Positions 7,982-59,420 of a stretch of 64,000 nucleotides of DNA are shown piece after piece. Made by a program: the position numbers and the translations under genes. The DNA comes from Bacteriovoracaceae bacterium (GTDB taxonomy: Bacteria; Bdellovibrionota; UBA1018), in the NCBI GenBank assembly GCA_947447665.1, contig CANFJX010000001.1, positions 211,911 to 275,910 on the forward strand, in the 5' to 3' direction. A model generated the notes under the pieces. The model was not told the DNA's origin and did not search any database. It was given only the letters and a program-made list of their open reading frames with translations. Each line of letters starts with the position of its first letter. Within the stretch, counting starts at the first letter, position 1.

Positions 7982-8046
7982 GACCTAAGTTATCTGCCGT
8001 TCAATTCAAATAATCAAGGTGGTTCGATCTTCTCGGATTCACTCCC

Positions 8047-8811
8047 TCAATCGCGAAGCTCCATGACAACAGGACAATGATCCGAGCCCATCACTTTGGG
8101 CTGATGCTCAACTGATTTTAATCGGTCTTTAAAGTCTTGATTCACAACAAAATAGTCCAAACGCCAACCTATATTTTTTTCTCTCACACCTGGGCGATAG
8201 CTCCACCATGTGTAATGGCCCGGATCAGGGTTAAAATGTCTAAACCCATCCACATAGCCGCGACTGATGAAGCTTTCCATCCAGGCCCTTTCCTCTGGGA
8301 GAAATCCGGCATTATTTTCATTCGATTTTGGATTTTTAAGATCAATTGCTCGATGGGCAATATTGAAATCTCCACAAACAATGATGTGCTTTTGCTTAGA
8401 CCGCAGGCTCTCCAAGTAATCATATATTTGGGCACAGAATTTCAATTTATATCCGAGTCGGGCCCCCTCCCGTTGACTATTGGGAAAGTAAGCATTAACG
8501 AGAAAAAAGTCCGAGAACTCAGCAGTAATGACTCGACCCTCGAGGTCAAATTCGGGGACATTCAATCCCATCGAAACTGTGAGTGGCTCTTTCTTCGAGT
8601 AAATTGAAACTCCACTATAACCGGCTTTTTCGGCTGAATGCCAATAAGAATGGTACCCAAATGGATTCCGCAACTCGTCCGTCAATTGATCTGGAGTGGC
8701 TTTTGATTCTTGAACACAAACGATGTCAGGTCCAAAATTCTGCATCCAAACTAGAAAATCTTTTCGAGCAGCCGCTCGAATTCCATTCACATTCCAACTA
8801 GTGATCTTCAT
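8047..8811 (-). CDS. xth: Exodeoxyribonuclease III
   Basis: MKITSWNVNGIRA...VCVQESK...GDFNIAH...SDHCPV matches the ExoIII/AP endonuclease motifs. Confidence 0.85.
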   Translation of the reverse strand: MKITSWNVNGIRAAARKDFLVWMQNFGPDIVCVQESKATPDQLTDELRNPFGYHSYWHSAEKAGYSGVSIYSKKEPLTVSMGLNVPEFDLEGRVITAEFSDFFLVNAYFPNSQREGARLGYKLKFCAQIYDYLESLRSKQKHIIVCGDFNIAHRAIDLKNPKSNENNAGFLPEERAWMESFISRGYVDGFRHFNPDPGHYTWWSYRPGVREKNIGWRLDYFVVNQDFKDRLKSVEHQPKVMGSDHCPVVMELRD

Positions 8812-17972: not shown

Positions 17973-18617
17973 ATGAGGCTAATCAATAAGCAGATTATGC
18001 TCATCGATGATGATGACGTACTACTCAAACTACTCACTCGCACACTAGAAACTCGAGGCTGCATCGTTCACTCCTGCAATCACATCAGAGAAGCTTTAAA
18101 GCTCATCACGGACCATGTTCCGGACTTAATCATACTAGATCTCAACATGCCTCAATTTGACGGCTTTACTTTTTTAAAGTTCAGACAAAAAAACGAACTT
18201 ATTTCGACCATCCCTGTTCTCGTTTTAAGTGGAACGAAGAGCCAAGAAGAGGCACAAAAAGCTCTAGAACTCGGCGCAGCCCACTTTATTTCTAAGCCTT
18301 TTGAAAGTCGAATTATTCTACAAAAAGTAAGATCTATTTTTCAATCAAAGGAACGCCTATCGTATCAATTTCCGGCCAGCGCCCAACCATTAGCCACAGC
18401 AGAAATCCAAGCATCTATTATTGAACAGGGCCATAGTCAAATCAAGATCGAGAGTCAGGTTAAATTCTGCGCCGGAAAATCAGTCGTCCTTATGTCAGAT
18501 GAATATCCTGGAAATAGTGAAGGTCCATCTCAATTTAAAATTGATGACAGCCCGGCCGAACTCAACCAAGGTCTTTTTAAAACATTACTAACGAGTCTAG
18601 GTATTGACACCCGATGA
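17973..18617 (+). CDS. Response regulator receiver protein with a C-terminal extension
   Basis: MLIDDDDVLLKLL...DLIILDLNMPQFDG...K matches the CheY-like phospho-acceptor pattern. Confidence 0.7.
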   Translation: MRLINKQIMLIDDDDVLLKLLTRTLETRGCIVHSCNHIREALKLITDHVPDLIILDLNMPQFDGFTFLKFRQKNELISTIPVLVLSGTKSQEEAQKALELGAAHFISKPFESRIILQKVRSIFQSKERLSYQFPASAQPLATAEIQASIIEQGHSQIKIESQVKFCAGKSVVLMSDEYPGNSEGPSQFKIDDSPAELNQGLFKTLLTSLGIDTR

Positions 18618-18927: not shown

Positions 18928-21900
18928 TTAAGCTTTTTCTCGCCTCTCTCTAAACTTGATCAACCCCTCACAGGTGTATTTATAACTATTTCGCATTGAT
19001 TCAAGCATCGGTTCAAGTTCTACTCTATTTTTTTCTCGAATAAGATCTTCAACTTTAATTAAAAGATCCCCTAGCTCAAAGGCACCTAGTGTCAGTGCTC
19101 CTGACTTCAAAGTGTGGACCTCACGTGCAGCACCCTCCAAATCATTGATCTTTAGACCTCTCTCAAGAGCATCTAATCTCTGCCTTGATTGGCTCAAAAA
19201 AGAGTTAATAATCTCAATAAGGATATCAGGTTTGCCTTCCATTTGTAGTTCATCAAACCGATTGAGCACTTCCTTACTAAGTTCAAAGCTCTTCCTTTCG
19301 TCGGTCGATTGGACCAGGTACCTCTTTAAAACTACCTCAAGCTCCTGCCTGTCAACCGGCTTCGAGAGGTAACCGTCCATTCCTGCCTCTCGACACTTCG
19401 TTTCATCACCCGAGACGGCATTCGCAGTCAAAGCAACGATTGGGATATTGCGCTCAGCTGAGGCTTTCTGTCTGATGATCCGAGTCGCCGTATAACCATC
19501 CATTTCTGGCATCTGGCAATCCATTAAAATTAAATCGTAATGGGCATAGCGCAAGGAATCGATCACCTCGTTACCGTTTGCCACTAGGTGATACTTACAA
19601 CCCCACTTATCTAAGACTCTGGAGATCACTAATTGATTAGTCGAGTTATCCTCGGCTACTAACACCCGACCCTCAAAAGATGGAGTTGGAGTTGGACTTG
19701 GCCTGAACTTTTGACTCTCACTGTGGCGCTCCAGCCTTCCACCCGTCTGCAGGCTTAAGGTGACTTTAAATGCTGCACCCTTTCCAAACTCACTGTCAAA
19801 GGTGATTTCTCCACCCATCATTTCCACGAGCCGCTTAGAAATAAAAAGCCCCAGCCCAGTGCCTCCGAATTTTCGACTGGTCGTTTTTTCTGCCTGAGAA
19901 AAGGCTTGGAACATTCTTGCCTTCGCCTCATCAGGAATACCAGTGCCGGTATCGCAAACAGTGATACAAATCTGAGTTCGACCTCTGTCTCCCTTTAATA
20001 CGGCAGACACTGCGACGCTTCCCTTTTCTGTGAACTTGATCGCATTGGAAACTAGGTTGTTGACTACTTGACCAATTTTCCCATCATCCCCAAGCACAGC
20101 GTAGTGATATGGAGTACAGTCGACGGATAGGCTAATCTTCTTTTTTTGAACGGAGTACTGAAATGGCTTTAAAAGCTCATGAAGATAGGTTGAAAAGTCA
20201 AACTCTGTCCCCTCAATTTCCATTTTTCCTGCTTCAATTTTAGAGAAATCTAAAATATCGTTAATGATCGTGAGCAAAGCCTTACCCGAGGCACAAATAG
20301 TATCGACACAATCTCTTTGCTCAGCATCCAGTTGGGTTTCTTCAAGTAATCCCGTCATACCGATAATGCCATTCAAAGGCGTCCGAATCTCGTGGCTCAT
20401 TGTGTACAAGAAATCAGACTTTGTGCTCGTTGCTTTTTCGGCTCGATCATAGGCCGCAGCAAGCTCTAACTGTTGAACTTTTTCTGCAGTAATGTCGCGT
20501 CTAACGGCAATATATTTCTCAATTTTTCCAGAGGAACCAACAAACGGGATAATCGTCGTGTCCACCCAGTAGTAAGTTCCTTTTTTGCTAAGATTGCAGA
20601 TCTCCCCATGCCAGGTAGTTCCAGACGAGATTGCTTTCCACATGGACCTAAAGAAGTTTTTGCCCATCCTACCAGAGTTTAAGAGGCGATGATCTTGTCC
20701 AATGAGCTCTGCTTCCGAGTAACCTGAAATTTCACAAAACTTCTCGTTAACGTATGTGATTTTCCCCGATTTATCCGTAAGCGCTAAAATGGCCGCTTTA
20801 TCCATGGCTAGCTTATAAAATGTATTCAGCTCTTCGGCCGACTTCAATGATGTTTTCAGTCTTTGCTCTAGTTCGATCTGATTTTTCTGAACATTGGTTA
20901 TATCGGAAAACGTACACATGACCCCCGAAGGTCTATCTGTGCCGGGAATTAAAATCGGCACAGCATTGATCAAAATTAGGCTTGGGCCTCCGTTTGGTTT
21001 TTGTACGATCATAGGAACATTGAGTTGAGGCTTGCCTGTCTTCAGACATAAAACAGATGGGTGCTCTGCCCCAGGAAATGCGCTCCCATCGGGCCTCTTT
21101 GTGACCCACTTTGGATCTAAAGTAGTTCGACCTGAGAGCTCGTCGGCGGAGAGACCAAGAATCTGAATTGCAGCGCGATTGAATTTGGAAATCTTGGTTT
21201 TCCCGTCTTGAAGCACAACTCCTTCTCTCATGCTTTCAAAGAGTTGCTCTAACTCAGCTGATCTTGATTCGGCGAGCGCCTTGGCCTCCTCAGTTTCAAT
21301 CTCTAACAACTTGAGTTCGGAGATGTCCTCAACCGCGGAGAGAAGAGAGAAGTCCTCAGTGCCTGGAATCGGAATCGGTCTGCTGGATACCTGCACCCAA
21401 ATCTCTCGGCCCTCTTTGGTGATATACCTCTTTTGAAATAGAGAAAGCTTAAAGTCTAAGTTCTTAAAATCGAGAGCAGTATCCTTCGTTTTTTTTAAAT
21501 CGTCTGGATGGGTGATTTCATAGACTGACATACTCTTGAGTTCTTCTTGTGTATACCCAAGCATTTTAGCAAAAGTAGGGTTCACTTCTAAGAATCGCAA
21601 TTTCGAATCCAGGTGAATCAGACCTATAGGCATGTAATCGAAAACTGTGCGGAATTTTAAGTCGTTTTGCGCTCGCCGACGAAGCTCCAGTTGACTCACC
21701 ACCTGCTTCGCCAAGATCTGTAAGGCGGCCGTCTGATCTGTGCTTAAATTGCGAGGATGCCTATCGATTACACAAAGGGTCCCGATCGTTTGACCTGTGA
21801 GCGTCTGCAATGGAGCCCCTGCATAAAAGCGAACCTGAGGTGCACCAATCACGAGTGGATTGTCATGAAACCGATCATCCTTGAGCGAGTCAGGAACAAT

Positions 21901-22164
21901 GAAAACATCTTTTTGTAAAATCGCATGAGCGCAGAAGGCGAAATCCCGCGGGGTTTCACTCACATCAAGTCCTACCTTAGACTTGAACCACTGCCGATTT
22001 TCATCGATGAGACTAATCAGCGCAATCGGAGCCCCACAAATTTTAGCGGCGAGATCCGTGAGATCATCGAAAACCTGCTCGGCCCGGGTATCGAGCACAT
22101 CATAGGACCGAAGGGCTTGCAATCGCTCAATTTCGTGAGTTGGGATATTCGCAGTTTTCATCAA
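18928..22164 (-). CDS. Hybrid sensor histidine kinase (GAF - multiple PAS - HisKA - HATPase - REC - HPt), cytoplasmic
   Basis: It has an N-terminal GAF domain, three PAS-like segments, the H-box [20 protein letters not shown] and a G-box GTGLGL. The receiver is [13 protein letters not shown]...[12 protein letters not shown] and the C-terminus has an HPt domain ([11 protein letters not shown]). Confidence 0.85.
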
Positions 22165-26244: not shown

Positions 26245-26994
26245 CTAGGCCGCACGTCCGTTTCTCGCAGAGCAATCTTCCATCAGCTTGGCGGCCTCAG
26301 CCTCGATGGCAGCTTTAAGAATTTCACCTACCCAGGCGCTCGCCTGTTTTTTAACTTCATCCCGAATGAGCTGACTTAAGAAGGTATCCTTCAGTTCAGA
26401 GAAAACCTGGGTGGCAATCCCTTCGGCCTGCCGCTTCATTGAGGTCTGCAAGATATCAAACGCGAGCTGATCAACCCGACCACTCAAGCTTACGTCCTTA
26501 AATTCGGAGGTAACGACCCTAGAGGCCACTGCATCATCTACCTGAACTTGTTCAAATTCTTCCATCATCCCGTCCATCATTCCTTCTTTCATCAAATTTG
26601 AGACTAACTGATAAGTGGCCATCCAAGTGTCCTGAAGCTCTTGTGTCCAATTGTCCGAGTAAAAGTAGGCGAGAGTACCAATGAGCGCCTTACCGACCCA
26701 TTCTAAATGCTCAGTTTTAGCTCCGTATTCAATATGACGCATGCCCATATTTTTTAAATAAATTTCTAATTTTTTTGTATTTTCAATGTTCTCAACTATA
26801 AATGCTAGTGATTCGGCCAGAGCCATTTTTTGAATCGAGAATGACTCGACAGAAAAAAGTTTCCTGAGCTCAGAGTGCTCACTCAAAAGAACTTCATAGA
26901 AATGATCGACAAAGTCGTCTGCTATACTAAGAATTGGCTGAAAGGATCGCTTAAGCAAAGAGGGATTAATCGACATACTCATCATCCTTGTCAA
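26245..26994 (-). CDS. Single-domain bacterial haemoglobin (3/3 globin, Vitreoscilla-Hb-like) with a roughly 100-aa C-terminal extension
   Basis: It aligns by eye to VHb: FYEVLLSEHSELRKLF, the IENTKKL region, proximal-His region MRHIEYGAKTEHLEWVGKAL. No FNR-type reductase domain is present. Confidence 0.65.
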   Translation of the reverse strand: MTRMMSMSINPSLLKRSFQPILSIADDFVDHFYEVLLSEHSELRKLFSVESFSIQKMALAESLAFIVENIENTKKLEIYLKNMGMRHIEYGAKTEHLEWVGKALIGTLAYFYSDNWTQELQDTWMATYQLVSNLMKEGMMDGMMEEFEQVQVDDAVASRVVTSEFKDVSLSGRVDQLAFDILQTSMKRQAEGIATQVFSELKDTFLSQLIRDEVKKQASAWVGEILKAAIEAEAAKLMEDCSARNGRAA

Positions 26995-27145: not shown

Positions 27146-29887
27146 ATGAGCGAATTATTAACCCCAGAATCCTATCAAGAATTTTATGCCGAGTGCGAAG
27201 AAATCATCGCTCGGGTCTCCCAATACCTGACCGAGATGGACAAAAACAAGCAAAACGCTACCCTAATCGATTCAGTTTACCGAGACATTCACACCATTAA
27301 AGGTTCAGCTCAGCTTTTTGGCTTTTCAGAAATTGGCAAAATCGCACACGCAATGGAAGCGTCTCTTGAGCCAGCGCGCCGAAGAAATATCCCACTCAGC
27401 CCTGACTGGATGGATTGCCTCCTCTCGTGCCTGGATCTAATCGAGCGGCTAATTAAAGCCAAAAAGGACCCCATCCTCGGGTATAAAATCGACCAGGATA
27501 CCATCTATCTCACCGTTAGCCATCTCATCGAAGCAGCTACGAGAAACTTTAAAACTGACCTTTTCGTCACTAAGGATTTTTTTGTGCCGATTGAAACACC
27601 CGACAGAAGGCAAATTTCACAATCAAGCGAATCTCTGCTCTCCGACCATTCGCTCCTATCTCCAGAAACCCAGACTCACTCTCAGAACTCCGCTCAGTCT
27701 CGAGAAAAAGAAGAGACCTCCAGCACCAATAAGGAGTCTGCATCGACCATTCGGGTGCAAGTCACTCTTCTAGACCGACTCATGAACTTGGTAGGAGAAA
27801 TGGTTCTAGTTCGAAACCAAGTTCTTCAATACTCTCATGATCATGAAGATTTCACTCTCCTGAACCTGAGTCAAAAGCTTGATCTCGTCACCAGTGAACT
27901 TCAAGAGGAGGTGATGAAGACTAGAATGCAACCGATCGGCACCATTCTCTCGAAATTCACACGTTTCGTCCGAGATCTAGCCCGAGATCTCAACAAGACC
28001 ATCGAAATTTCAATCGAGGGTGCTGAAACAGAACTAGACAAAACCCTGATCGAAGCCATTAAAGATCCGCTCACCCACATCATTCGGAATGCCTGCGACC
28101 ACGGGATTGAGGATGCCGAGGAGCGGAGAAAGTTTAGCAAAGCTCCGACTGGAAAAATATTGGTCAGTTCGCTCCAAGAAAGCGGCCAAGTCGTCGTAGA
28201 AATCCTTGATGATGGAAGGGGTCTCGATCCAAAAAAGCTACTCAGCAAAGCGATTGAGAAAAAATTTATCTCACAGGAGCAGGCCCAGCTCCTCTCAGAT
28301 CGTGAAATTTTTCAGCTTATTTTCATACCTGGATTTTCAACTGCCGATAAAGTAAATCCTGTATCGGGACGCGGCGTCGGGATGGACGTCGTAAAAACAA
28401 ACATTGAGAAGATCGGTGGCACGGTTGAAATAAAGAGCGAACTCAATCGCGGAACTTGTATTCGTCTTAGAATTCCCCTCACCCTGGCCATCGTCCCGGC
28501 GCTCATCGTCCGCTTCAAAAACAATCGATTTGCCATCCCTCAAGTCAAGCTCCTAGAACTGGTACGAGTCGACGCATCAGAGACCCAAAACAAGCTTGAG
28601 TTTCTCCAAGGAAAGCCCGTTTTTAGGTTAAGGGGAAATTTACTTCCTCTCGTATCGCTAGATGAAATCATCGAAGAAAAATCCGCAGACGCATCACAAG
28701 AAAGCTTAAAACGACAAACAGAAAACGGCGTCAATATCATTGTGCTTGCGACTGACTCTGGCCCTTTTGGCTTGATCGTTGACGAAATTTTGGACACAGC
28801 TGACATCGTTGTTAAGCCGTTAGCTAAGTTTTTTAGAAAGCTGATGATTTATTCTGGTGCAACTATCATGGGCGATGGAAGTGTGTCTTTGATTTTTGAC
28901 GTACTTGGCATTGCCGCAAAAGCGAATCTCAATCAAAATCGGAGTCGCAACCAGGAGCTGGGTACTCGAATCCAAACTAGAGGCTCTCAAAACCAGCCAG
29001 AAACGCAGGAGATGCTTTTATTCTCACTAAAATCAGATGGAAACTTTACCATCCCTCTTTGCCTCGTGCAGCGACTCGAGGAATTCTCAAGGCAAGAAAT
29101 TGAGGTTTCTGGGCGGCACCGAATTGTGCAGTATCGAGACGCCGTGCTTCCCCTCATCTCGCTCAATCAAGTTTTGGGCTTCAGTGCACCCGAAGGCGAA
29201 TCACCACCCACAGCCCAAGCAGAATCCGAGAAGGTGCCTATCATTGTTATCCAAAAGCGAAATCGACTCTACGGGATCGAGGTAGACCGAATCATTGACA
29301 TTTTCCTTGCCGATCGCGAAATCGAAGACCCGATTAGGGAAACTCCAGGAATCTTGGGCAACATCATTCTTGGAAATGAAGTTTCTACCGTAATTGACGT
29401 ACTGAGCGTCATTGACTTAATGACCGGACAGGTAGATTCTAAAAAAGAAAGTCACGCAAGAGAAGCGCCTCAGGCTTTAAAAGAACTGATGACGTCAAAA
29501 CCTCTTCGCATTCTCTTTGCTGAAGATACGATATTTTTTGTCAAGCAGGTCAGTAAAATCCTCACCTCGCAAGGGCATCATGTAACTCACGCAGGAGATG
29601 GAGCCCAAGCGCTCGAAATTCTTGAGAAGTCTCGGCCAGGTGAATTCGACTTAGTTCTGTCGGATATTGAAATGCCTAAGCTCAATGGATTTCAGCTCGC
29701 TCAAAAGATTAGATCCCTCAAGGAATTTTCGGGTATTCCCATGATTGCACTAACAACGCGAATGAGAGAATCCGATATCGAGCGCGGGAAAAACGTTGGA
29801 TTTAACCGGTACATTGAAAAACTAAAAAGCGATCAACTCATCGAAGCCATTCAGGAGATCTCTCATGAGCGAACCCTCTCTCACTAG
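27146..29887 (+). CDS. cheA: Hybrid chemotaxis histidine kinase CheA (HPt - dimerisation - HATPase - CheW-like x2-3 - REC)
   Basis: It has the HPt motif HTIKGSAQLFG, a Ser/Thr-rich linker, HATPase (IRNACDHGIE..., GRGVGMDVV), CheW-like segments and a C-terminal receiver (ILFAEDTIFF...LSDIEMPKLNGF). Confidence 0.85.
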   Translation: MSELLTPESYQEFYAECEEIIARVSQYLTEMDKNKQNATLIDSVYRDIHTIKGSAQLFGFSEIGKIAHAMEASLEPARRRNIPLSPDWMDCLLSCLDLIERLIKAKKDPILGYKIDQDTIYLTVSHLIEAATRNFKTDLFVTKDFFVPIETPDRRQISQSSESLLSDHSLLSPETQTHSQNSAQSREKEETSSTNKESASTIRVQVTLLDRLMNLVGEMVLVRNQVLQYSHDHEDFTLLNLSQKLDLVTSELQEEVMKTRMQPIGTILSKFTRFVRDLARDLNKTIEISIEGAETELDKTLIEAIKDPLTHIIRNACDHGIEDAEERRKFSKAPTGKILVSSLQESGQVVVEILDDGRGLDPKKLLSKAIEKKFISQEQAQLLSDREIFQLIFIPGFSTADKVNPVSGRGVGMDVVKTNIEKIGGTVEIKSELNRGTCIRLRIPLTLAIVPALIVRFKNNRFAIPQVKLLELVRVDASETQNKLEFLQGKPVFRLRGNLLPLVSLDEIIEEKSADASQESLKRQTENGVNIIVLATDSGPFGLIVDEILDTADIVVKPLAKFFRKLMIYSGATIMGDGSVSLIFDVLGIAAKANLNQNRSRNQELGTRIQTRGSQNQPETQEMLLFSLKSDGNFTIPLCLVQRLEEFSRQEIEVSGRHRIVQYRDAVLPLISLNQVLGFSAPEGESPPTAQAESEKVPIIVIQKRNRLYGIEVDRIIDIFLADREIEDPIRETPGILGNIILGNEVSTVIDVLSVIDLMTGQVDSKKESHAREAPQALKELMTSKPLRILFAEDTIFFVKQVSKILTSQGHHVTHAGDGAQALEILEKSRPGEFDLVLSDIEMPKLNGFQLAQKIRSLKEFSGIPMIALTTRMRESDIERGKNVGFNRYIEKLKSDQLIEAIQEISHERTLSH

Positions 29888-30347
29888 TAATCAAGAAGCA
29901 CCGAAATCAGCAGAAAATCGAGACACTGTCCAGTTTTCTACTTTTTTTGTCTCAGGTCGGCTCTATGGAATTGACGTGAGTTCAGTCCAAGAGGTGACTA
30001 AGTCACTTCCAATCACTGAGGTCCCGCTAGCGCCGAATTATATTCACGGATTAATCAATCTCAGAGGCCAAATTGCCACGGCTGTAAGCCTGAGAGACCT
30101 TTTCGAATTGAAAGACCCAGCACCGAACGAATTTATGAACGTAGTCTGTCGTCTCGACGGAGTGCTTATTTCCCTTCTGGTGGATGAAATCGGGGATGTC
30201 ATCGAACTCAGCCAAAACTCCTTTGAGCCTACACCCGACACGATATCTCCTAAGGTAGCTAAATTTATGGACGGAATTTATAAAATACCAGGTCATTTAC
30301 TCAGTATAATTGAAGTAAAAAGAGTACTTGGCGTTTTGAACGAATAG
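29865..30347 (+). CDS. cheW: Chemotaxis coupling protein CheW
   Basis: It has the single CheW domain pattern (FFVSGRLYGIDVSSVQEV); 160 aa. Confidence 0.8.
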   Translation: MSEPSLTSNQEAPKSAENRDTVQFSTFFVSGRLYGIDVSSVQEVTKSLPITEVPLAPNYIHGLINLRGQIATAVSLRDLFELKDPAPNEFMNVVCRLDGVLISLLVDEIGDVIELSQNSFEPTPDTISPKVAKFMDGIYKIPGHLLSIIEVKRVLGVLNE

Positions 30348-30381: not shown

Positions 30382-31968
30382 ATGCAAGAGACAGAAATAG
30401 GTACTAAAAGAGCTAGCGTTTCAATGGTGGTGGATTCTGATTTTTCTTCGGCAGAAGAAATTAAGAGCCTTTTGGAAAATTCTCCTACTAATGTTATTTA
30501 TTGCGATATCCACAATAATTTTACTATTCGCTATATGAATAGAAAAAGTATCCAAACGCTTCAAAGTTTAAGTAAACACCTTCCTATCTCTCCTGACAAA
30601 ATGATAGGGGCCAGTATTGATGTCTTCCACAAGGCGCCAGAACACCAGAGGAGGATGCTTGCCAATGACAAGAACCTACCGCATCACGCCGTCATTGAGC
30701 TAGGTCCTGAAAAACTTGATCTCTTAGTCTCTCCGATCTATGACGGCAAAGGAAAATATGTGGGGGCCATGCTCACTTGGGACATCATCACAAAAAGGCT
30801 TGAGGTCGAGAGCAATCTCGCCCGAATTGAGTCGATGATGGAGAATGCTCCCGTCAATACGCTACTTGCAGACCGGGATTTAAAACTCGTCTACATGAAT
30901 AAGAAAAGTCGGGAGACCCTCCAAAGACTCGAGAAGTTCCTGCCCAAACCGGTCAATCAGCTCATTGGTCAATCGATTGACATCTTTCACAAAAATCCAG
31001 CTCATCAGCGAAAAATGCTCGCAGATGACCGGCTCTTGCCCCACAAGGCGAGGATTCAGGTAGGTGATCAAATCCTTGAGCTTTTAGTCTCAGGAATTTA
31101 TGATCAGAATCGAACTTATCTAGGCCCTATGGTCACTTGGGACATTATCACGGAGAAAGTAGCCCTTGCTAAAACTCTAGAGAGCACGGCCAATGAACTG
31201 GGAGCTGCAGCCAATGCGCTGTTTTCTACAGCCACCCGACTTTCGGAAAACTCTGAGCTTACCGCTAGTCAATCGATTCTGGCAGCCGCCAATACGGAGG
31301 AAGTGTCCAAGGGCGTCCAAACAGTTGCAACGAACACCGAAGAGATGGTGGCATCGATCAAGGAGATCGCGCGAAACTCTTCTGAAGGAGCCAACCTTTC
31401 TCGGGACACTCTAGCAAAAGCCCAAGAAACGAACAAGACGATCACCCAGCTCGGTCTCAGCAGCCAGGAGATTGGGAATGTAATTAAGGTAATTAGTTCG
31501 ATTGCTCAACAGACCAACCTATTAGCGCTCAATGCGACGATCGAGGCAGCTCGCGCCGGAGATGCAGGAAAGGGGTTCGCGGTTGTCGCCAATGAGGTCA
31601 AGGAACTCGCTAAGCAGACCGCCAAAGCAACCGAGGATATCACTAATCGAATTGGTGCAATTCAAAAGGACTCCCAAGGTGCTGTCGCTGCCATTGGCGG
31701 AATCTCAAACGTCATCGAGAAACTAAATAGCATCTCTATGGCTATTGCAGCTTCGATTGAGGAACAGACTGCGACGACTAATGAGGTCGCTCGGGTGGTC
31801 AAGGTCTCCAATCAAGGCGTCGATGGGATCGCAGAAGTCGTGAAATCAGTATCTTCAGCGGCGAAGCAAAGCTCTGCCGGAGCCTCCCAAACGATGGAAG
31901 CCGCCAAAAGTTTGGCCAGCCTTGCAGATCGTCTGAAAAAGCTCGTAAATAGTGTGCAAGCTGAATGA
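30382..31968 (+). CDS. Cytoplasmic methyl-accepting chemotaxis protein with two tandem PAS-like sensing modules
   Basis: There is no TM segment. Two roughly 120-aa repeats ([25 protein letters not shown]... and [25 protein letters not shown]...) are followed by the MCP signalling domain ([31 protein letters not shown]). Confidence 0.85.
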
Positions 31969-33056
31969 AGGTACTTATTGTTGACGACTCGGTCGTATTT
32001 AGATCCCAAATCGCTGCTGCACTGACAGGCACCCCCCAAATCGAGGTCGTCGGATCAGCTCCGAATGGGAGCATTGCGCTTCAGAAGCTTGATCAGCTCT
32101 CGGTGGATCTAGTGACCCTGGATATGGAGATGCCAGACATGGACGGCATCGCTGTACTAAAGGCGATTCGAGAACGCAAACATAAGGTACGAGTCATCAT
32201 ATTTTCTGCCCAAACGATCCGAGGCGCAGAAAAGGCGCTTCAGGCGTTGAAGGCGGGAGCAGACGACGTGATCTCAAAGCCGTCCAGCAGCGAAGAGGCG
32301 ACGGATTACAAATCCCCTCAAGAGCGAATTCGGGAAATTCTAGTGCCAAAAATTCACCAATTCCTAGAAAAACGGGAGAAAACTTCGCTTACTCCAGAAC
32401 GCCGCGAAGAAAAACTCGAACTATTTCCCAAAACTCCCCCTCTAGGAGCATTCGAAAAACTCCCTCTGACGGGATTTCAGCCCTCAGCTGTGGTCATTGC
32501 TTCTTCGACCGGAGGCCCGACTGCCCTTGAAACCATTTTTACGCAAATCCCACAATCATTAGAGATCCCTATAATCATAGCCCAACACATGCCACCCGTT
32601 TTTACACAAATACTAGCCAAGAGACTAGGGGACCTCTCGAAGAAGCCATGCAACGAGGCTAAACATGGCGATATTTTAAAGCCTGGTCACATTTATGTCG
32701 CACCTGGAGACTACCACCTCCAAGTAGCCCACTCCTCAGGTGAAGTCGTACTGGAACTCAATCAAGGCCCGCAAAGGAACTCTGTTAGACCAGCTGCCGA
32801 TTATCTTTTTGAATCTGCGGCGGCGGTTTTTAGAAATCGGCTTTTAGGAATCGTACTTACCGGAATGGGGCAAGATGGTCTACAGGGCTCTATTGCCATT
32901 AAGCAAGCCGGGGGCCGCATCCTGATCCAGGACGAACCATCGTGTGTCGTCTTTGGCATGCCGGGAGCGGTATTCAAAGCCAATTGCTATGATGGAATGG
33001 GAGATCTCCAGATGATTTCCGGCGTACTACAAAAGTTATCGGAAAACCTACATTAA
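31965..33056 (+). CDS. cheB: Chemotaxis response regulator protein-glutamate methylesterase CheB
   Basis: The receiver ([11 protein letters not shown]...[10 protein letters not shown]) is followed by a methylesterase domain ([16 protein letters not shown]). Confidence 0.85.
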
Positions 33057-33072
33057 ACTAAGGGGGGAACTG

Positions 33073-33459
33073 ATGAAAAACTTTGGACAATTCCTAGTTG
33101 AAAAAAAAATTCTCTCCAAGGAGCATCTACTCGACTGTTTTTTAGAGCAGCTCTCCTCAATGCCAGCGATTTGTCAACTAGCAAGAGATAAAAACATTTT
33201 AAGCACAGACCAAATTCTCCAGGCTCTCGAGCTTCAGTCAAAAAATGAAATCGGATTTAAAGAGGCATGCCTGAATTTAGGACTTTGGAGCAATGAGACT
33301 GATACAGCCGTCAAAAAAGAGCTATCATTGATCCGTACGCCCCTTGGAAATATCCTACTCAAACGCGGTTTGATCAGCCTCCATGATCTCACCAGGGCTC
33401 TGGACGAATTTTTCTCTGATGATAGTCATTTATCATCTATTCCTAATTCCTCTTCTTGA
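33073..33459 (+). CDS. Standalone T2SSE_N/MshEN-like domain protein (putative c-di-GMP-binding)
   Basis: The 128-aa protein has repeated segments fitting the MshEN consensus RLGxxLLxxGLIxxxxLxxALxxQ. These are FGQFLVEKKILSKEHLLDCFLEQ, KNILSTDQILQALELQ and LGNILLKRGLISLHDLTRALDEFF. Confidence 0.45.
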   Translation: MKNFGQFLVEKKILSKEHLLDCFLEQLSSMPAICQLARDKNILSTDQILQALELQSKNEIGFKEACLNLGLWSNETDTAVKKELSLIRTPLGNILLKRGLISLHDLTRALDEFFSDDSHLSSIPNSSS

Positions 33460-33513
33460 ATTCCACCCGAAAAATGCCATAATTAGAGCATAGAAGGCTG
33501 GAAATTAAATACG

Positions 33514-34353
33514 ATGGAATTCTCTCAAGAAAAAATCCGATTTTTTGCAAAATATATCGAAAAAGAACTGGGAATTGTCTATTCAGACTCCAACTACTTC
33601 CAACTCGAACACAGACTGAGCGATATCACTTCTCAGCTAGGACTTAAAAGTCTCGAGGACCTCTGGATGAGGGCGACCTCAGGAATCGATACTCAACTCA
33701 AGGAACTCCTTCTAGACATTGCAACTAATAACGAAACCAGTTTTTTCAGAGACCCTTCCCTATTTGTCGGTCTCGTAAAATCGATTGTCCCCGAGCTTTT
33801 GTCGGCTAACCCCCAACTGAAGGAACTTCGAATCTGGAGCGCTGCCTGCAGTAATGGCCAAGAGCCCTACTCGATTGCAATGGCCTTAGATGAGGCTCGA
33901 TCTGAAAATCCAAATTTTCCCAATTATAAAATCCTTGCCACCGATTTTTCTGAGCGGGTTCTTTCTCGAACCAAAGCAAGAACGTATTCCCAATTGGAGT
34001 TGCAGCGAGGACTTTCGGCTTCTCGTCTACAAAGATATTTTGATCCCGGATCAGCGCCTAACACTTGGGTACTCAATAGCCGAATTCCGCCCTCAAACTT
34101 TCAGTTTCAACAACTCAACCTTCTCGATCCCTGGAATTTTGACCATAATTTTCATATCGTGTTTTGTCGTAACGTTCTCATTTACCAAAACGTCGACAAT
34201 AAAATTCGAGTGATCGACAAGATTTTAAAAGTTTTTGAGAAGGATGCTTATCTTGCCCTGGGAGCTGCCGAGAGTCTACTAGGTATCTCAGACTTGTTTG
34301 AACAGGTGCATTTCGAAAATTCCGTTTTTTATCGAAAAAAGCGGTCGAATTAA
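33514..34353 (+). CDS. cheR: Chemotaxis protein methyltransferase CheR
   Basis: The SAM-binding region IWSAACSNGQEPYSIAM and the CheR N-terminal helical domain are present. Confidence 0.85.
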   Translation: MEFSQEKIRFFAKYIEKELGIVYSDSNYFQLEHRLSDITSQLGLKSLEDLWMRATSGIDTQLKELLLDIATNNETSFFRDPSLFVGLVKSIVPELLSANPQLKELRIWSAACSNGQEPYSIAMALDEARSENPNFPNYKILATDFSERVLSRTKARTYSQLELQRGLSASRLQRYFDPGSAPNTWVLNSRIPPSNFQFQQLNLLDPWNFDHNFHIVFCRNVLIYQNVDNKIRVIDKILKVFEKDAYLALGAAESLLGISDLFEQVHFENSVFYRKKRSN

Positions 34354-37067
34354 GCTGCAACAAGCTCCTCTGGATCAATGACGGTAATTGTTCTACCCCC
34401 CAGGACAAGATTGCCTTGAATACCTCGCTGGTCCGCTATAGGAGGTTCTAAGTTACCGTTTGAACTCGCGATATCTATGATTTGCTTCACTTTGAAAGCA
34501 AGATACCTCTGATGACTCGCCATGACGATGACTTGAATTCGACTTCCGGTCGAGGCATTCACTTCCATCGCCGAACCTAAAAGCTCACTCATATTTAAGA
34601 TGGGTAAGATTTGTTTGCGATAAGGAATCACATTAAAATTACCGGACTTCTGAATTGAGTCAGCATCAAACTCCTCAAGCCTAAACACTGAATTTCTAGG
34701 AATGGCAAAAACCCCTGGAATGCTGAGCTCAAAAAGTAACCAGTCCGCGCTCTGAGTTGACCCATTTTGTAATTGAGTTTGTAACTTCTTCTCTTTACTT
34801 TTGAACAGTTCGGTCCGTATGTGAGCGATCTTCGCGATGCCATCAACACTCAAAAGAAGGCCAATGGTTCCATCCGATAAGAAGGTTGCTCCAGAATATG
34901 CGTCTAGTTTTTTTAGACTCGGCGCAAGCTCCCGCACGACTGCATCTTCAAAGTCACGAATCTCGTCCACAATGAGTCCAAAATTTTTACCGCCCTCAGC
35001 TTTCACAACCACTACCGTGAACTGACTCGGAAGAACCGACAGCTGAGAAGAAAACAGAACAGCTCCAAGCGAGACAAGCGGAACTGACTCCGCTTCGCTT
35101 TCTCGGAGTAAAATCCCCCCCTCAAGTTCACAAATGAGTTGTTTTCGGACCTGCTCGTCGATCTGAATAAGCCGGACAATTTGATCTTGAGCCACTCCAA
35201 ATTCCTGTCCCCCTGCCATTACGAAAAGACAGTTCTTAATATGAACTGACTTCGGGATCGGCAACTCCAAAACAAAACAGGTCCCCTTTGATTTTTCAGT
35301 TTCAATTCGGATTCGCCCGCCAATACCCTCGACACTCGTTTTTACAGCACTGGTACCCACGCCACGACCAGAAATCTCCGTAGTCTGTGCTGCAGTACTG
35401 AATCCCGACTCAAAAATAAATCCATAGACTTCAGCATCCGGCATTAGAGCAGCTGCGGCCTCAGTCCTCATCCCCTTGCTCACAATTTTTTTTCGGATCG
35501 CCTCTACATCGATGCCCTTACCATCGTCGCGGACTTCGACCATGACGTGGTCATTCTTGAGAAAGGCCCGGACCAAGAGCATCCCTTTTTCACTTTTACC
35601 TAATCTCACTCGCTCCTCTGGAGTCTCGATCCCGTGATCAATACTGTTACGAAGCAAATGACTCATCGATGCGTTGAGAACTTCAGAAATGGAACTATCC
35701 ACTAGTAAATCTTCGCCTTCTATACGAAGCGAGCAGGATTTTTTGGTTTTTTCGGTTACGTCTCGCACCAGCCGTGGCAAAGTTTTAAAGACATTTTTTA
35801 ATGAGACTTTTCTGACCTCGGTAATTTTTCCCTGCACCATGGCGTTTACTTTGTGAAGCTCGTCGAGCAAGTCTCCGAGTTGGGTTACATCTTTGTCGGA
35901 CGAGTATCGCTTCTCGAGCGTTAAGACTGACTTATTGACCATATTCCTCACGACGGTCATCTCGCCAGAGGCGCGCAGTAACTGATCTAAAAGCTGAATA
36001 TCGATTTTAATACTGTTTTCTTTCACAGGGTGCGCGGTGCTCGCATTGGCGCTCGAGTCAGCTTCTTGTGCAGCTTCTTGTGTATCCGAGGGTGGTTCAA
36101 TATTGCCACCTCCTAAGATCACAGCGTCTGAAAAAACCTGGCAAAGATCCTCTAAATTATGTTCTTGCTGGATCTGCGTATCAAACTCTTTCAACAGTCC
36201 TCTAGAAATATCGACTACCTTGAGAGTGGCGGAGATAAAGGGTTGAGAAATTTTCAGGGTATTACCTTGGACCCGCTTCAAGACATCTTCGAAGCGATGG
36301 TAAAATCGATGGAGAGTTTGAGGCTGAAAAAAACTACTGGCCCCCTTGATTGTATGAACTATTCCAAAAAGGCTATTGAGCAATTCCTTCTTGGTAGGGT
36401 TCTGCTCCAACTCAAGAGCGAGGCTTTCAATCTGCTCAAAGCATCCCTTGGTTTCCTCAATAAAAGCGCAGAGTAGCTCCAAATCTTCGTAAATCGAGGC
36501 AATCCTTTTAATCAACTCGCCTGATAGCACCGAGGCGAGAGCCCCTCGATCGAAAGGCTTCTCTAAAAGCCCTACTTGGCTGAGGGGTTCGATTTTAGAT
36601 AGCAGTTCGGCTCGTTGACTATCCGCTAAAATGAGAAGTGGAACGACCTCTAAGGCTTTTGTGAATTCTGATCGAAATGCCAAAGCACTCATGTCTCCAA
36701 GCTCGGCGGGACAGATGACCAATAATATTCGAGAATGGTCTTGCCGTAAGCGTTGAAGAGCCTCTGCTCCAGAATGAGCCCTGACAATTTCAATACCCCA
36801 GTCGGCGCTGAGAAGCTCGGCCTGGTTAGTCGACTCCGGATCTAATGCGCAAATTAAAACGGTCGGTTTTATTTTCGGGTTAGCAGTCTTGAGCGGTAAA
36901 GTTCTGGACTCAATTTCTTTACAAAGATTGGCCCAGCTCATCCCTGCGTCAGGTGATTGATTCATCTGAGCAGACCTCGTACCATCAGAATTTGTAGGTT
37001 CATGACTCAATTTACTTCCTATGTTCCCTTTCGGAACAGAAGGATAGAAACTTGAGTCGAGAGGCAC
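34350..37067 (-). CDS. Second hybrid CheA-like histidine kinase (degenerate N-terminal REC-like - HPt - HATPase - CheW-like x2)
   Basis: It has the HPt motif HTIKGASSFF and HATPase motifs (LRNSIDHGIE, GRGVGTSAV), followed by two CheW-like segments. It is convergent with cheR. Confidence 0.8.
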   Translation of the reverse strand: MPLDSSFYPSVPKGNIGSKLSHEPTNSDGTRSAQMNQSPDAGMSWANLCKEIESRTLPLKTANPKIKPTVLICALDPESTNQAELLSADWGIEIVRAHSGAEALQRLRQDHSRILLVICPAELGDMSALAFRSEFTKALEVVPLLILADSQRAELLSKIEPLSQVGLLEKPFDRGALASVLSGELIKRIASIYEDLELLCAFIEETKGCFEQIESLALELEQNPTKKELLNSLFGIVHTIKGASSFFQPQTLHRFYHRFEDVLKRVQGNTLKISQPFISATLKVVDISRGLLKEFDTQIQQEHNLEDLCQVFSDAVILGGGNIEPPSDTQEAAQEADSSANASTAHPVKENSIKIDIQLLDQLLRASGEMTVVRNMVNKSVLTLEKRYSSDKDVTQLGDLLDELHKVNAMVQGKITEVRKVSLKNVFKTLPRLVRDVTEKTKKSCSLRIEGEDLLVDSSISEVLNASMSHLLRNSIDHGIETPEERVRLGKSEKGMLLVRAFLKNDHVMVEVRDDGKGIDVEAIRKKIVSKGMRTEAAAALMPDAEVYGFIFESGFSTAAQTTEISGRGVGTSAVKTSVEGIGGRIRIETEKSKGTCFVLELPIPKSVHIKNCLFVMAGGQEFGVAQDQIVRLIQIDEQVRKQLICELEGGILLRESEAESVPLVSLGAVLFSSQLSVLPSQFTVVVVKAEGGKNFGLIVDEIRDFEDAVVRELAPSLKKLDAYSGATFLSDGTIGLLLSVDGIAKIAHIRTELFKSKEKKLQTQLQNGSTQSADWLLFELSIPGVFAIPRNSVFRLEEFDADSIQKSGNFNVIPYRKQILPILNMSELLGSAMEVNASTGSRIQVIVMASHQRYLAFKVKQIIDIASSNGNLEPPIADQRGIQGNLVLGGRTITVIDPEELVAA

Positions 37068-51809: not shown

Positions 51810-52055
51810 TTACTTACCCTTATTGGATTTAGACGGAGAAGCTACCTTGCTAGCGGAAACTGTGTCACTCACGACACTCTTGCCTGTAACATCAGAACCA
51901 GCCGCGCAATCGGGCTCGCCGCTCTGCCCTGTCCCAACTTGCCCTGCCGCTTCAGAATCACCGGATAGCCTTGAATTCTCTGCTGCGAAACCTGGGGCAC
52001 TCAGGGCTGAAATTAAAACCAAGCTCAAACCAGAAATTTTAATAAAGTTTTTCAT
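51810..52055 (-). CDS. Small secreted Gly/Ser-rich, likely disordered protein (Bdellovibrio hit-locus Bd0108-like by position)
   Basis: It has a signal peptide (LVLISALSAPGFAAE) and a low-complexity mature region. It lies immediately upstream of the YD-repeat gene and the Tad cluster. Confidence 0.45.
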   Translation of the reverse strand: MKNFIKISGLSLVLISALSAPGFAAENSRLSGDSEAAGQVGTGQSGEPDCAAGSDVTGKSVVSDTVSASKVASPSKSNKGK

Positions 52056-52090
52056 AAAATCCTCTCATACATATTTTATGTTTATATATA

Positions 52091-53800
52091 TCAAAAAGCA
52101 AGACTTACTCCAGCCGGCCTAATGATATCTAGAAGACCCTGAAACGAGGTCGTCACCTGGGCAGCCACCTTTTTTCCGGCCTGACTGCTCACTTCCTTGA
52201 TCCCACCACTATTGTTGTAAGTAACTGTAATTGAGCCCAAAGCTGGGTCAGAAATTTCGATTGGCTTTGAGATCTCATTATACTTAAAATTGATCTGCTC
52301 TTTATTTTGATCAATCAGCGTTCGAATTCGACCTAGACCATCGTAAATCAACTTAACACCTTTACCTTCTGAGTTTTTAGCGAATGATAAATTCCCCTTA
52401 GAATCGTATTGAAACTCAGACCAAATTGATTTCTTCTTATCTTTGACAGGATACTTGACCACGCGATCTACCTTATTAGCTTTCTGATCGTAGTGCAGCT
52501 CCGTCACTTCATAGGGCGTTGTCTTCTTGGTGACATGCCCCTTAGCATCATAGACGAACTGAGTCTCATCGCTCCCCTGCTTAATCACCAGAGGCAACCC
52601 GCAACACTCGCTATAGGTGGTCTCCACCTTATCCCCATCAAAATCAGCAATCAACTTATAGGTCCACTCCTCACCCGTTGGCTTGACCTTGGTCAGATAC
52701 TGATACTTACTCTGCGACAGGACTTCCGATCCCTTCTTACTTACAACAGAAACTGAACTATTACCCTTATTTGCTGAGTTACTCCCGTAATCATACTCAG
52801 TCACAGTTCCATCACGATCTTTAACTCTCAGAACGTTCTCCTGCCGATCCATTCCATAATAACTAATGTTCATTGCAGTTTTGTCGACGTACCCAATCTC
52901 AATCATATTATGACGCCGTTGATCATCATAACGATAGCTATAGCTGTTACCGTCGACGTCCTTGCTCTGAGTGAGCTCGCCACCAGCGTTATAAGTGTAA
53001 ACAGCTGACTTCCCGCCCTCGCCGTCCATCTGAGAGACTAAACCCTGACTATTGTATGAAAAAAACATTTTCCGATTTAAGTTATCGACCAATTTTTTTA
53101 GATGTCCGTCGGCGCCGTATTCAAAGGCAATGTAATTTCCGTTTTTATCTGAAATTTTTGATAAATGTCCTTGATTATTAAATTTCTCAACCCGACCCGA
53201 ATCGGCCAAATTCCGCACATAACCGTCGCTCGTTTTAGTTATGTACTGATAGTTAAAACGATTGGACTGCAACTGAGTCCCCGTAGCAAGTTCCCGCGCC
53301 TTGATCTTTCCCTGAGCTTTAAATGCTTCCCACTGCTGATTTCTAAAGGAGGCATCGGCTCGCAGCCGACTCTTGTAATCGACTAATTGTGCTGCAGTGC
53401 CCAAGGTTCCCTCCTGCTGAGCCACCTTGGCAAGGCTATCGACTGCTTTCTCTAGCTCAGAGGCACTGAAGGCGAGGGGATTAAACCGATTCTCAGCCCC
53501 TCCGCCATATTCATGAACCACCACGCTGCCATCGGCAGATACGGTTAGATAAACCTCGAACTCATTACCCCAACCCCACCCAAACATTCCACGATAGGGA
53601 CTTTTTGAGTTATAAACACGCTCCAGTTTGGTTTCAAATCCACCGCTATAGATGGCGTCGGTATAGGCGATGAAAAAATTTCCATTCTTCAAGCTAACAT
53701 TTGCCTGCAAATCTTGCCCACCAAAAAAAACACCCAGAGTCACCAACATGGTGATGCCAAAATTTAATTTCATTGCGTGAATACCCCCAAAAAAGAACAA
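52091..53800 (-). CDS. Secreted YD-repeat (RHS-family repeat) protein without a recognisable C-terminal toxin domain
   Basis: It has a signal peptide and multiple YD repeats (YDAKGHVTKKT, YRYDDQRR, YTYNAGGELTQSKDVDGN); 569 aa. Confidence 0.7.
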   Translation of the reverse strand: MFFFGGIHAMKLNFGITMLVTLGVFFGGQDLQANVSLKNGNFFIAYTDAIYSGGFETKLERVYNSKSPYRGMFGWGWGNEFEVYLTVSADGSVVVHEYGGGAENRFNPLAFSASELEKAVDSLAKVAQQEGTLGTAAQLVDYKSRLRADASFRNQQWEAFKAQGKIKARELATGTQLQSNRFNYQYITKTSDGYVRNLADSGRVEKFNNQGHLSKISDKNGNYIAFEYGADGHLKKLVDNLNRKMFFSYNSQGLVSQMDGEGGKSAVYTYNAGGELTQSKDVDGNSYSYRYDDQRRHNMIEIGYVDKTAMNISYYGMDRQENVLRVKDRDGTVTEYDYGSNSANKGNSSVSVVSKKGSEVLSQSKYQYLTKVKPTGEEWTYKLIADFDGDKVETTYSECCGLPLVIKQGSDETQFVYDAKGHVTKKTTPYEVTELHYDQKANKVDRVVKYPVKDKKKSIWSEFQYDSKGNLSFAKNSEGKGVKLIYDGLGRIRTLIDQNKEQINFKYNEISKPIEISDPALGSITVTYNNSGGIKEVSSQAGKKVAAQVTTSFQGLLDIIRPAGVSLAF

Positions 53801-53809
53801 AAATTAAAA

Positions 53810-54670
53810 TCAAACGTCAATCTTAACCACTCTCATGATGACAAAGAAACCCGCAATTTCCAATACTATAATTACCAAAATACATAACCACCCTAGAGGA
53901 GTGGTAAAGAGGGGCCTCATCAGATCTGGGTCAGATTGATTCAGTATAAAGCCCAGAATCGGTGGAAGTGACATGACCAGAACCCCTTGATAAAATCCCT
54001 GGGCGGTCAGTGCCGCAATCTTATTCTCGACCTTAATTCGCTCTCGAATCGTAGTCACAATCGTATCAAAGGTCTCCGCCAAGTTTCCGCCGGTCTCCCT
54101 CAAGATATTTACCGAAGTCACAAACATTTCCACATCATCTGCGGGTATTCGTTTGGCAAGGCTCAAAAATGCATCCTCGATGGAAACACCCAACTTATTT
54201 TCACTCAGCACCAAGTTAAACTCCTGCTGAATCGGATTCGGCATTTCTTGACTCACGAGAGCCAAAGATTGGACCACTGATAGCCCCGACTTAAGCCCAT
54301 TAGACATCAAACTCAGACCGTCAACCATTTGAAGTACAAATCGATTCACTCTCCTTAAGTAATACCAATCGACTACCGGTTTAGGCGCCTTCCACCCAAT
54401 TACAGTCGTAACAATCGCGATTGGCAACCCTGGAATAATATTAGGTAAGAATGAAATAAATACAATTGATCCGAGACCGAAACTAAGTAAGAAGAGCCCG
54501 ATCAGAATCCTTTCAGAGGGCACTTCTATGAACATCATTGCCAGCTTCTCTACAATATAGTCACGAGTCCCAAGAGACTGAAATCGGAGCCAATCGAAAA
54601 ATCGGTTGCTATAGTGGTAAGCAAATAAAAAGCATGAAATTCCAAAAAGTAAGATTCCTATTAACTTCAT
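53810..54670 (-). CDS. tadC: Tad/Flp pilus assembly inner-membrane platform protein (TadB/TadC, T2SS-F family)
   Basis: It has the polytopic GspF-like domain and lies in the Tad cluster. Confidence 0.7.
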   Translation of the reverse strand: MKLIGILLFGISCFLFAYHYSNRFFDWLRFQSLGTRDYIVEKLAMMFIEVPSERILIGLFLLSFGLGSIVFISFLPNIIPGLPIAIVTTVIGWKAPKPVVDWYYLRRVNRFVLQMVDGLSLMSNGLKSGLSVVQSLALVSQEMPNPIQQEFNLVLSENKLGVSIEDAFLSLAKRIPADDVEMFVTSVNILRETGGNLAETFDTIVTTIRERIKVENKIAALTAQGFYQGVLVMSLPPILGFILNQSDPDLMRPLFTTPLGWLCILVIIVLEIAGFFVIMRVVKIDV

Positions 54671-54691
54671 TTTTAGCTCATTTCTAAAAAA

Positions 54692-56851: not shown

Positions 56852-56869
56852 GAAATTCCGACCCCCAAT

Positions 56870-59406: not shown

Positions 59407-59420
59407 TCTTCACCTTCTCC

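Follow-up and report, generated by a model that had tools for sequence, protein, structure and literature searches.

The window analysed here, i.e., a 64,000-nucleotide stretch of contig CANFJX010000001.1 (positions 211,911 to 275,910) from a Bacteriovoracaceae bacterium of the phylum Bdellovibrionota, contains a chemotaxis (che) cluster in which the genes for a hybrid kinase with a receiver domain (CheA-REC), CheW, a PAS-containing methyl-accepting chemotaxis protein (PAS-MCP), CheB, a 128-residue protein and CheR follow one another in overlapping or close co-oriented order. The 128-residue protein, here referred to as X (Table 1), starts 16 nt beyond the CheB stop codon (33054-33056), and a gap of 54 nt separates its stop codon from the CheR start. 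X is a real, conserved and selected, co-oriented member of the che cluster and, as discussed below, it is a stand-alone tandem pair of MshEN_N four-helix bundles, denoted (MshEN_N)2. By homology of its N-terminal module and by its slot in the operon it is, in addition, a shortened member of a Bdellovibrionota family of (MshEN_N)2-Hpt proteins, one that lacks the histidine phosphotransfer (Hpt) domain. Proven receptors of cyclic di-GMP (c-di-GMP) with this type of module are the MshEN_N domain of Vibrio cholerae MshE (5HTL) and PilF GSPII-B of Thermus thermophilus (8PDK).

The architecture of X follows from sequence models, a structure model and an alignment to Glov_2742 of Geobacter lovleyi. 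The MshE-related NCBIfam model NF053729 (c-di-GMP_motif, 53 positions) matches X at 39.9 bits (cutoff 38, E 2.6e-10) and is matched by 140 of 141 members of the family described below at E<0.01; together with the Pfam-confirmed flanking genes, this match bears out the first-pass annotation of the locus as a stand-alone MshEN-type protein between cheB and cheR. A search of the PDB with the single sequence returned only PilB, at E>1, and a family profile was needed for matches. The N-terminal part of this profile matched the c-di-GMP-binding domains of PilF and of MshE 5HTL (E 0.002-0.04), and a profile of 12 N-domain sequences matched PilF at E 1e-4 and MshE at E 0.03, the latter gap-free over MshE residues 8-63. 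Alignment to the (MshEN_N)2 part of Glov_2742, the sequence of which was taken from the supplement of Wang et al. (2016, Nat Commun 7:12481), gave 97.1% in hhalign (E 6e-11, columns 1-113 against 3-115, no gaps) and E 2e-6 in BLASTP. The AlphaFold2 model, based on 29 homologues and with a mean pLDDT (predicted local distance difference test) of 89.5, has eight helices that pair into four short-helix/long-helix hairpins, as is found in four-helix bundles, and its best structural matches are ligand-bound domains. X thus consists of the MshEN_N subdomain only, twice, without the alpha/beta T2SSE_N1 subdomain; the model is all-helical and ends at residue 128. Scans against Pfam and NCBIfam revealed no ATPase, in agreement with the initial description, and no other attached domain, including PilZ and Hpt; the only Pfam signal is a sub-threshold match to DUF4388 at residues 3-36 (20 bits, cutoff 25).

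The strict MshEN motif, RLGxx(L/V/I)(L/V/I)xxG(L/V/I)(L/V/I)xxxxLxxxLxxQ, defines a 24-residue unit, two of which are joined by a 5-residue spacer to form the 53-residue module; a relaxed version, [RKPN]hGxxhhxx[GAS]hhxxxxhxxxhxx[QNKRYWST], was also given (Wang et al. 2016). Every 24-mer of X was scored against the relaxed motif at its 11 constrained positions, and four units were placed (Table 1). Among 20,000 shuffles of X, one match as good as those of units 1 and 4 was found in 0.3% and two such matches never. The claim of several consensus copies is nevertheless too strong: these two units reach 10/11 each, the other two of the four are degenerate, and bundle 2 lacks both terminal Gln. 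Unit 4, the best-looking copy, keeps P90-L91-G92 and G99, and the best NF053729 stretch spans residues 90-112. Unit 3 (helices 62-68 and 74-87) is collinear with unit 3 of Glov_2742 and of a distant group of 122-residue stand-alone (MshEN_N)2 proteins (P0157-P0175). In the latter group all four units are clean (IFGEYLVE.., PLGQLAL.., FGKLAVE.., LLGEILV..), and units 2 and 3 of X are on this basis degenerate MshEN_N hairpins. One gene of this 122-residue group (P0170, 6001..6369 of locus L020) lies directly 3' of a CHASE2-guanylate/adenylate cyclase gene and not in a che operon. The motif spacing, which had been taken to be non-canonical, turned out to be canonical, i.e., 24 + 5 + 24 residues, twice, with spacers at residues 27-31 and 85-89, and the alignments to MshE 8-63 and to Glov_2742 are gap-free. 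As read from these alignments, what is non-canonical in X is the identity of several key residues.

Table 1. Gene X, its predicted units and the flanking che genes (nucleotide positions within the window)
Feature	Position	Strand	Residues of X	Remarks
Gene X, 128-aa stand-alone (MshEN_N)2 protein	33073..33459	+	1-128	ATG start, stop codon 33457-33459
Unit 1, first hairpin of bundle 1	33079..33150	+	3-26	NFGQFLVEKKILSKEHLLDCFLEQ; 10/11; K12 at turn
Unit 2, second hairpin of bundle 1	33166..33237	+	32-55	AICQLARDKNILSTDQILQALELQ; 7/11
Unit 3, divergent hairpin of bundle 2	33247..33324	+	59-84 (about)	6/11; turn G70; no terminal Gln
Unit 4, best-looking	33340..33411	+	90-113	PLGNILLKRGLISLHDLTRALDEF; 10/11; F113 for Gln at position 24
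C-terminal tail, low-confidence, non-conserved	33427..33456	+	119-128	pLDDT <50
Shine-Dalgarno-like AAGGGGGG	33060-33067	+		5 nt 5' of X ATG, read from sequence
CheA-REC hybrid kinase, first in cluster	27146..29887	+		Pfam: Hpt, H-kinase_dim, HATPase_c, 2x CheW-like, REC
CheW	29865..30347	+		Pfam, synteny
PAS-containing MCP	30382..31968	+		Pfam, synteny
CheB methylesterase, directly 5' of X	31965..33056	+		Pfam: REC + CheB_methylest
CheR methyltransferase, directly 3' of X	33514..34353	+		Pfam, synteny
Second CheA, convergent with CheR	34350..37067	-		Pfam; N-terminal extension precedes Hpt

A word-seeded homologue search returned only X itself and one relative at 59% identity. The exhaustive profile search recovered 596 cluster representatives at E<=1e-3, of which 340 were found at E<=1e-10, and thereby showed X, beyond what the first-pass annotation had noted, to be a truncated form within a large Bdellovibrionota family whose members normally have a fused Hpt domain. 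Among the best 150 representatives about 90% are 215-430 residues long, and nearly all of these have the 116-residue module at the N-terminus. The C-terminal part of the long forms (260-330 residues), which run on into a linker and an Hpt domain where X has its short tail, matches the P1 (Hpt) domain of CheA with the family profile (2LD6, E 1.3e-9; 1TQG, E 3.7e-9), i.e., most members carry a CheA-P1-like Hpt domain. Of 138 long forms, 89 have the Hpt histidine and about one third lack it, which indicates that the conserved core function lies in the N-terminal module and that phosphotransfer is not universal. Family members are called "hypothetical protein" in every naming source and all matches are proteins from metagenome-assembled genomes (MAGs) or metagenomes; no orthologue from cultured B. 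bacteriovorus is found among them. For B. bacteriovorus HD100, the census of 2016 names no proteins other than Bd1509, Bd1596 and Bd2402 (Wang et al. 2016).

A locus scan with a 12-sequence query, in which each species was represented by one genome, gave 17 loci. Fifteen of them come from MAGs with Bdellovibrionota labels (Bdellovibrio, Bacteriovoracaceae, Pseudobdellovibrionaceae, Oligoflexia). The remaining two, L012 and L016, show a typical Bdellovibrionota che cluster in MAGs labelled Phyllobacteriaceae and Nitrosovibrio; these labels are probably binning or labelling errors, and the family is, by this distribution, confined to Bdellovibrionota. The synteny of the 17 loci was determined by tblastn with the Che proteins of the window. 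CheB is found directly upstream of X in 16 of them, preceded by CheA-REC, CheW and PAS-MCP where the contig is long enough, and CheR is found downstream in all 15 loci with sufficient sequence on that side; in L007 the sequence ends at X. A CheY-like gene is frequently located 3' of X, as in L003, where CheB is followed by a 304-residue X-Hpt protein (6995..7909), a 126-residue CheY-like REC protein (7931..8311) and CheR; in P0036, X, Hpt and REC are fused in a single protein. Judged by this gene order, the family keeps to a single fixed operon, cheA-REC/cheW/PAS-mcp/cheB/X/(cheY)/cheR. X shares with the family the homology of the N-terminal module and the slot after cheB and before (cheY)/cheR, and it lacks the Hpt domain; by comparison with the long-form loci, the clade to which the window belongs has lost both the Hpt domain and the cheY gene.

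A CheA with a C-terminal receiver normally implies an Hpt relay downstream, and the relay expected for the hybrid CheA-REC is lost from the window operon. A tblastn search of the window with the C-terminal regions of the long forms revealed no separate Hpt gene; the matches were the P1 domains of the two CheAs only. The sole other Hpt-containing protein of the window is a 1078-residue hybrid sensor kinase (18928..22164, - strand; GAF, 3x PAS, HisKA, HATPase_c, REC, Hpt), which adjoins a stand-alone REC protein (17973..18617, + strand). The second, convergent CheA is kept across the short-form clade (L001, L002, L021, L022 and the P0002 contig) and is also found in L017. In the window it carries an extension of ~190 residues before the Hpt domain, which may be REC-like as suggested by tblastn matches to REC-containing neighbours elsewhere; Pfam gives no REC match.

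Promoter- and terminator-like sites occur in the region at chance frequency, and no terminator-like sites are found in the CheB-X or X-CheR gaps. A sigma-70-like site in the X-cheR gap (33456..33483, + strand; TTGAAT, 16-nt spacer, CATAAT, extended -10 TG) may be meaningless given this frequency. Divergent from cheA lies the gene for a 249-residue globin-domain protein (26245..26994, - strand; Pfam Globin, E 5e-9), homologues of which are found within a few kb of the same che cluster in L004, L008, L011 and L012; the globin neighbour and the PAS-MCP suggest O2, NO or redox sensing by the cluster. Further away, a region at ~52000..61400 (- strand) looks like a Tad/Flp-type pilus cluster, in which only one gene is annotated; its T2SSE-family ATPase (54692..56851, - strand) is fused at its N-terminus to a ParA/MinD-like (CbiA) domain, not to an MshEN domain.

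In the MshEN module each half-site combines the RLG from one unit with the LxxxLxxQ from its partner unit, and the polar contacts with the ligand are provided by Gly backbone amides and two Gln side chains; the only described role of these side chains is contact with ribose-phosphate. The gap-free alignment sets MshE R9, L10, G11, G18, L25, L29 and Q32 against N3, F4, G5, K12, L19, F23 and Q26 in unit 1 of X, and R38, L39, G40, G47, L54, L58 and Q61 against A32, I33, C34, N41, I48, L52 and Q55 in unit 2. Conservation was counted over 151 representatives. In bundle 1, F4 (100%), G5 (95%), Q26 (100%) and Q55 (99%) are nearly invariant, and in bundle 2 the same holds for P90 (99%), G92 (97%), F62 (92%), W72 (98%) and D111 (96%); position 24 of unit 4, F113 in X, is F or Y in 100%. 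X has terminal Gln residues at Q26 and Q55 of bundle 1; in bundle 2, unit 3 lacks Gln and unit 4 ends in F113. Family-wide, half-site A of bundle 1 is canonical ([L/Y/F]-F-G with I/L48, L52 and Q55) and half-site B is altered (S-V-A/C with L19, L23 and Q26).

Data from PilF indicate which of these residues matter. Arg is not needed at motif position 1 (R/K/L), and GSPII-B, which has K/L at this position, binds more tightly; the Q190E change in GSPII-B weakens binding, and Q190E together with Q218E abolishes it. The terminal Gln are lost in the non-binding XpsE N-domain, the N-domain of X. citri PilB (which binds PilZ) and PilF GSPII-A, whereas bundle 1 of X keeps both. Such retention of F-G and of the two Gln would be hard to explain without a ligand. 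Because F4-G5, Q26 and Q55 are kept but the second RLG is A-I-C and bundle 2 lacks the Gln pair, binding of c-di-GMP by X at one site, in bundle 1, is plausible, with slightly less than an even chance, and not assured.

Several observations weigh against a c-di-GMP-binding X. None of its units fits either motif, strict or relaxed, at every position. The pass in NF053729 is marginal, 1.9 bits over the cutoff, and is summed from separate half-site stretches; Foldseek gave no significant E-values with the model; and Pfam PF05157 (T2SSE_N), which the initial description had proposed as a check of a T2SSE_N-like domain, has no match in X even at E<=10, i.e., that part of the description has to be given up in favour of MshEN_N twice without T2SSE_N1. 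In place of the second RLG of bundle 1, X has A32-I33-C34 and the family consistently S-V-A/C, and the non-binder PilF GSPII-A has an S..A pattern of this kind; restoring the consensus in GSPII-A did not restore its binding, so that motif reading is a poor predictor. In XpsE, the changes R38G and G40L have been linked to loss of binding (Wang et al. 2016). The closest cluster representative, P0002, carries G5V, which resembles XpsE G11V and hints at a relaxed ligand constraint in the short-form clade. Neither unit 3 nor unit 4 of X offers a ligand-contacting Gln, and the loss of the Hpt histidine from about a third of the long forms means that a simple phosphorelay is not family-wide. Finally, no GGDEF/EAL gene was found in the window: a motif search (regular expressions) for GGDEF, EAL, PilZ and HD-GYP gave only three loose EALxR matches, none of which is EAL by Pfam.

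Many MshEN domains have no ligand site (Wang et al. 2016), and X could likewise be a degenerate (MshEN_N)2 scaffold that no longer binds any nucleotide and acts in the Che array only as an assembly factor or an adaptor between proteins, in the manner of the MshEN-like N-domains of XpsE and Xanthomonas PilB, the latter of which binds PilZ. The failure of all units to fit the relaxed motif, the S/A..A/C replacement in motif 2 that is shared with PilF GSPII-A, the missing Gln pair of bundle 2 and G5V in P0002 are as expected from such a scaffold. It does not account as easily for Q26/Q55 kept at 99-100% and F4-G5 at 95-100% in a family that is otherwise 30-60% identical, known non-binders have replaced these very Gln (Q61V in XpsE, H33/R62 in PilF GSPII-A), and the best structural matches of X are ligand-bound domains. 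We consider a non-binding scaffold to be a serious, though doubtful, alternative to binding by bundle 1.

Both c-di-GMP and cyclic GMP-AMP (cGAMP) control motility in these predatory bacteria. The asymmetry of bundle 1, which is family-wide, would also be compatible with another cyclic dinucleotide, e.g., 3',3'-cGAMP, bound between a canonical guanine half-site and an altered one, and B. bacteriovorus makes cGAMP with functions that are distinct from those of c-di-GMP (review). This alternative is unlikely: it is purely inferential, an MshEN_N domain with cGAMP specificity was not found in the literature searched, and X itself departs from the family consensus at N3, A32 and C34.

X belongs to a short-form clade composed of P0001, P0002, P0152 and P0003 (50%-identity cluster representatives, 46-64% identical), all of which are intact; the layout CheB-X-CheR-convergent CheA is identical on the contigs of P0001, P0002 and P0152. 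Relative to the L021 orthologue, the proportion of nonsynonymous differences (pN) is 0.21 for X, 0.185 for CheB and 0.18 for CheR. The corresponding synonymous value (pS) is saturated at 0.84, for which reason dN/dS is not computable and pN relative to the neighbouring genes was used instead; the comparable values indicate that X is under purifying selection. Other short forms have long forms as nearest neighbours: P0155 occupies the same operon slot, and the second gene downstream of it is a separate one for Hpt-REC, and P0134 is an orphan outside any che cluster. That X is a non-functional remnant, left when an ancestral X-Hpt gene lost its Hpt domain, along with cheY, through a deletion, is very improbable and was rejected: most relatives are indeed 260-330 residues long with an Hpt domain, and the X reading frame stops just past the N-terminal module, only 54 nt before cheR, but the short form is an old, stable lineage with four intact representatives and identical synteny in the three checked, pN is comparable to that of CheB and CheR at saturated pS, all family-invariant residues are kept, the AlphaFold2 model is confident and independent short forms such as P0155 exist in the same slot.

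Links between c-di-GMP and chemotaxis mostly involve PilZ proteins (YcgR, MapZ, PlzC) or CheY-like Cle proteins. To our knowledge, for MshEN_N modules in Che proteins, binding has been measured for one (a CheA insert) and a cellular function has been reported for none. Entry of c-di-GMP into chemotaxis by this fold is not in itself new, because MshEN_N in Che proteins is already catalogued, both as an insert in CheA and as (MshEN_N)2-CheX, which the first-pass annotation had not mentioned; Supplementary Table 4 of Wang et al. (2016) includes the stand-alone Cyanothece cce_1044 and the (MshEN_N)2-CheX protein Glov_2742, and an (MshEN_N)2-REC-cyclase is listed in the same study. Both cce_1044 and Glov_2742 resemble X in having a tandem 53-residue MshEN_N bundle without T2SSE_N1, and both are absent from the isothermal titration calorimetry (ITC) table of the same study, i.e., the tandem architecture is a putative binder there too. 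Glov_2742 shares with X the start KxFGQFLVE, Phe rather than Gln as the last residue of unit 4 and a tie to chemotaxis, in its case through the CheX domain. In contrast, units 2 and 3 are far more degenerate in X, the X family is fused to Hpt or, as X, stands alone rather than being fused to CheX, and, unlike the two catalogued proteins, the family is Bdellovibrionota-confined in a fixed cheB-cheR slot.

Compared to MshE and PilF GSPII-B, bundle 1 of X runs in gap-free register with MshE 8-63 and has equivalents of L10/G11, L25, L29, Q32, L54, L58 and Q61; it differs from MshE in R9->N, R38->A, G40->C, G18->K and G47->N and in the absence of T2SSE_N1 and the ATPase, and from both receptors in a second bundle without both Gln and in the missing Pfam T2SSE_N match. 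The Aeromonas veronii CheA with an MshEN_N insert, to which c-di-GMP is bound with a dissociation constant (KD) of 2.6 uM (Wang et al. 2016), is a chemotaxis protein in which MshEN_N has imperfect motifs, as in X, and is an experimental precedent for direct c-di-GMP input to a Che pathway by this fold; there, a single insert is found within CheA, whereas X is a separate tandem protein from a different phylum. New with respect to the 2016 catalogue and the literature searched are the (MshEN_N)2-Hpt architecture, the restriction to Bdellovibrionota, the fixed slot and the recurrent Hpt-less derivatives.

The PilZ adaptor HapZ of Pseudomonas aeruginosa blocks phosphotransfer from SagS to HptB. 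A second such adaptor of P. aeruginosa, MapZ, binds CheR1. They offer a functional analogy only, i.e., small stand-alone c-di-GMP receptors that act through binding to a chemotaxis methyltransferase or to an Hpt component of a phosphorelay; the folds are unrelated (PilZ beta-barrel versus helical MshEN_N), and the partner of X is putative.

From the above considerations, X is tentatively viewed as a small accessory protein in the cytoplasm that serves a chemosensory pathway specific to Bdellovibrionota and is composed of two MshEN_N bundles, with a ligand in bundle 1 and a protein-protein output; we assign this overall reading slightly less than an even chance. Bundle 1 (residues 1-57), which keeps the G5 backbone, Q26, Q55 and both hydrophobic clusters, would probably bind one cyclic dinucleotide, most likely c-di-GMP, with an affinity that is reduced or altered because the second RLG is A-I-C. 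Bundle 2 (residues 59-118), which has lost the Gln pair and carries F62, W72, P90, G92 and D111, is more likely a protein-contact surface, and the output of X would be exerted through protein-protein interaction. In a relay of the type CheA-REC -> Hpt -> CheY, the long forms may serve as the Hpt step, and the ligand state of (MshEN_N)2 would gate the attached Hpt domain. The Hpt-less X would then act in trans; given the fusion to Hpt in the long forms, its most likely target is the P1/Hpt domain of CheA1 or CheA2, where the second, convergent CheA is one candidate partner. The flanking CheB or CheR are alternative targets, and whichever target applies, X may function as a MapZ/HapZ-like adaptor on a different fold. 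A more specific version, in which the family is a cyclic-dinucleotide-gated Hpt/P1 switch in chemosensing, X acts in trans on the P1 domain of CheA and the asymmetric site is tuned to a 3',3'-cGAMP-like dinucleotide, is a long shot.

The family offers a compact, phylum-wide test case, i.e., a tandem MshEN_N protein, usually Hpt-fused, that is locked in one che operon. If no dinucleotide is bound, it is a further case in which reading of the MshEN motif over-predicts receptors. If a dinucleotide is bound, a step of the Che phosphorelay would be under second-messenger control, and the natural short and long forms would provide a built-in dissection of sensor and output. Should the family prove to be a cGAMP-tuned switch, this would mean a new ligand specificity for MshEN_N and entry of a second messenger at the kinase phosphotransfer step.

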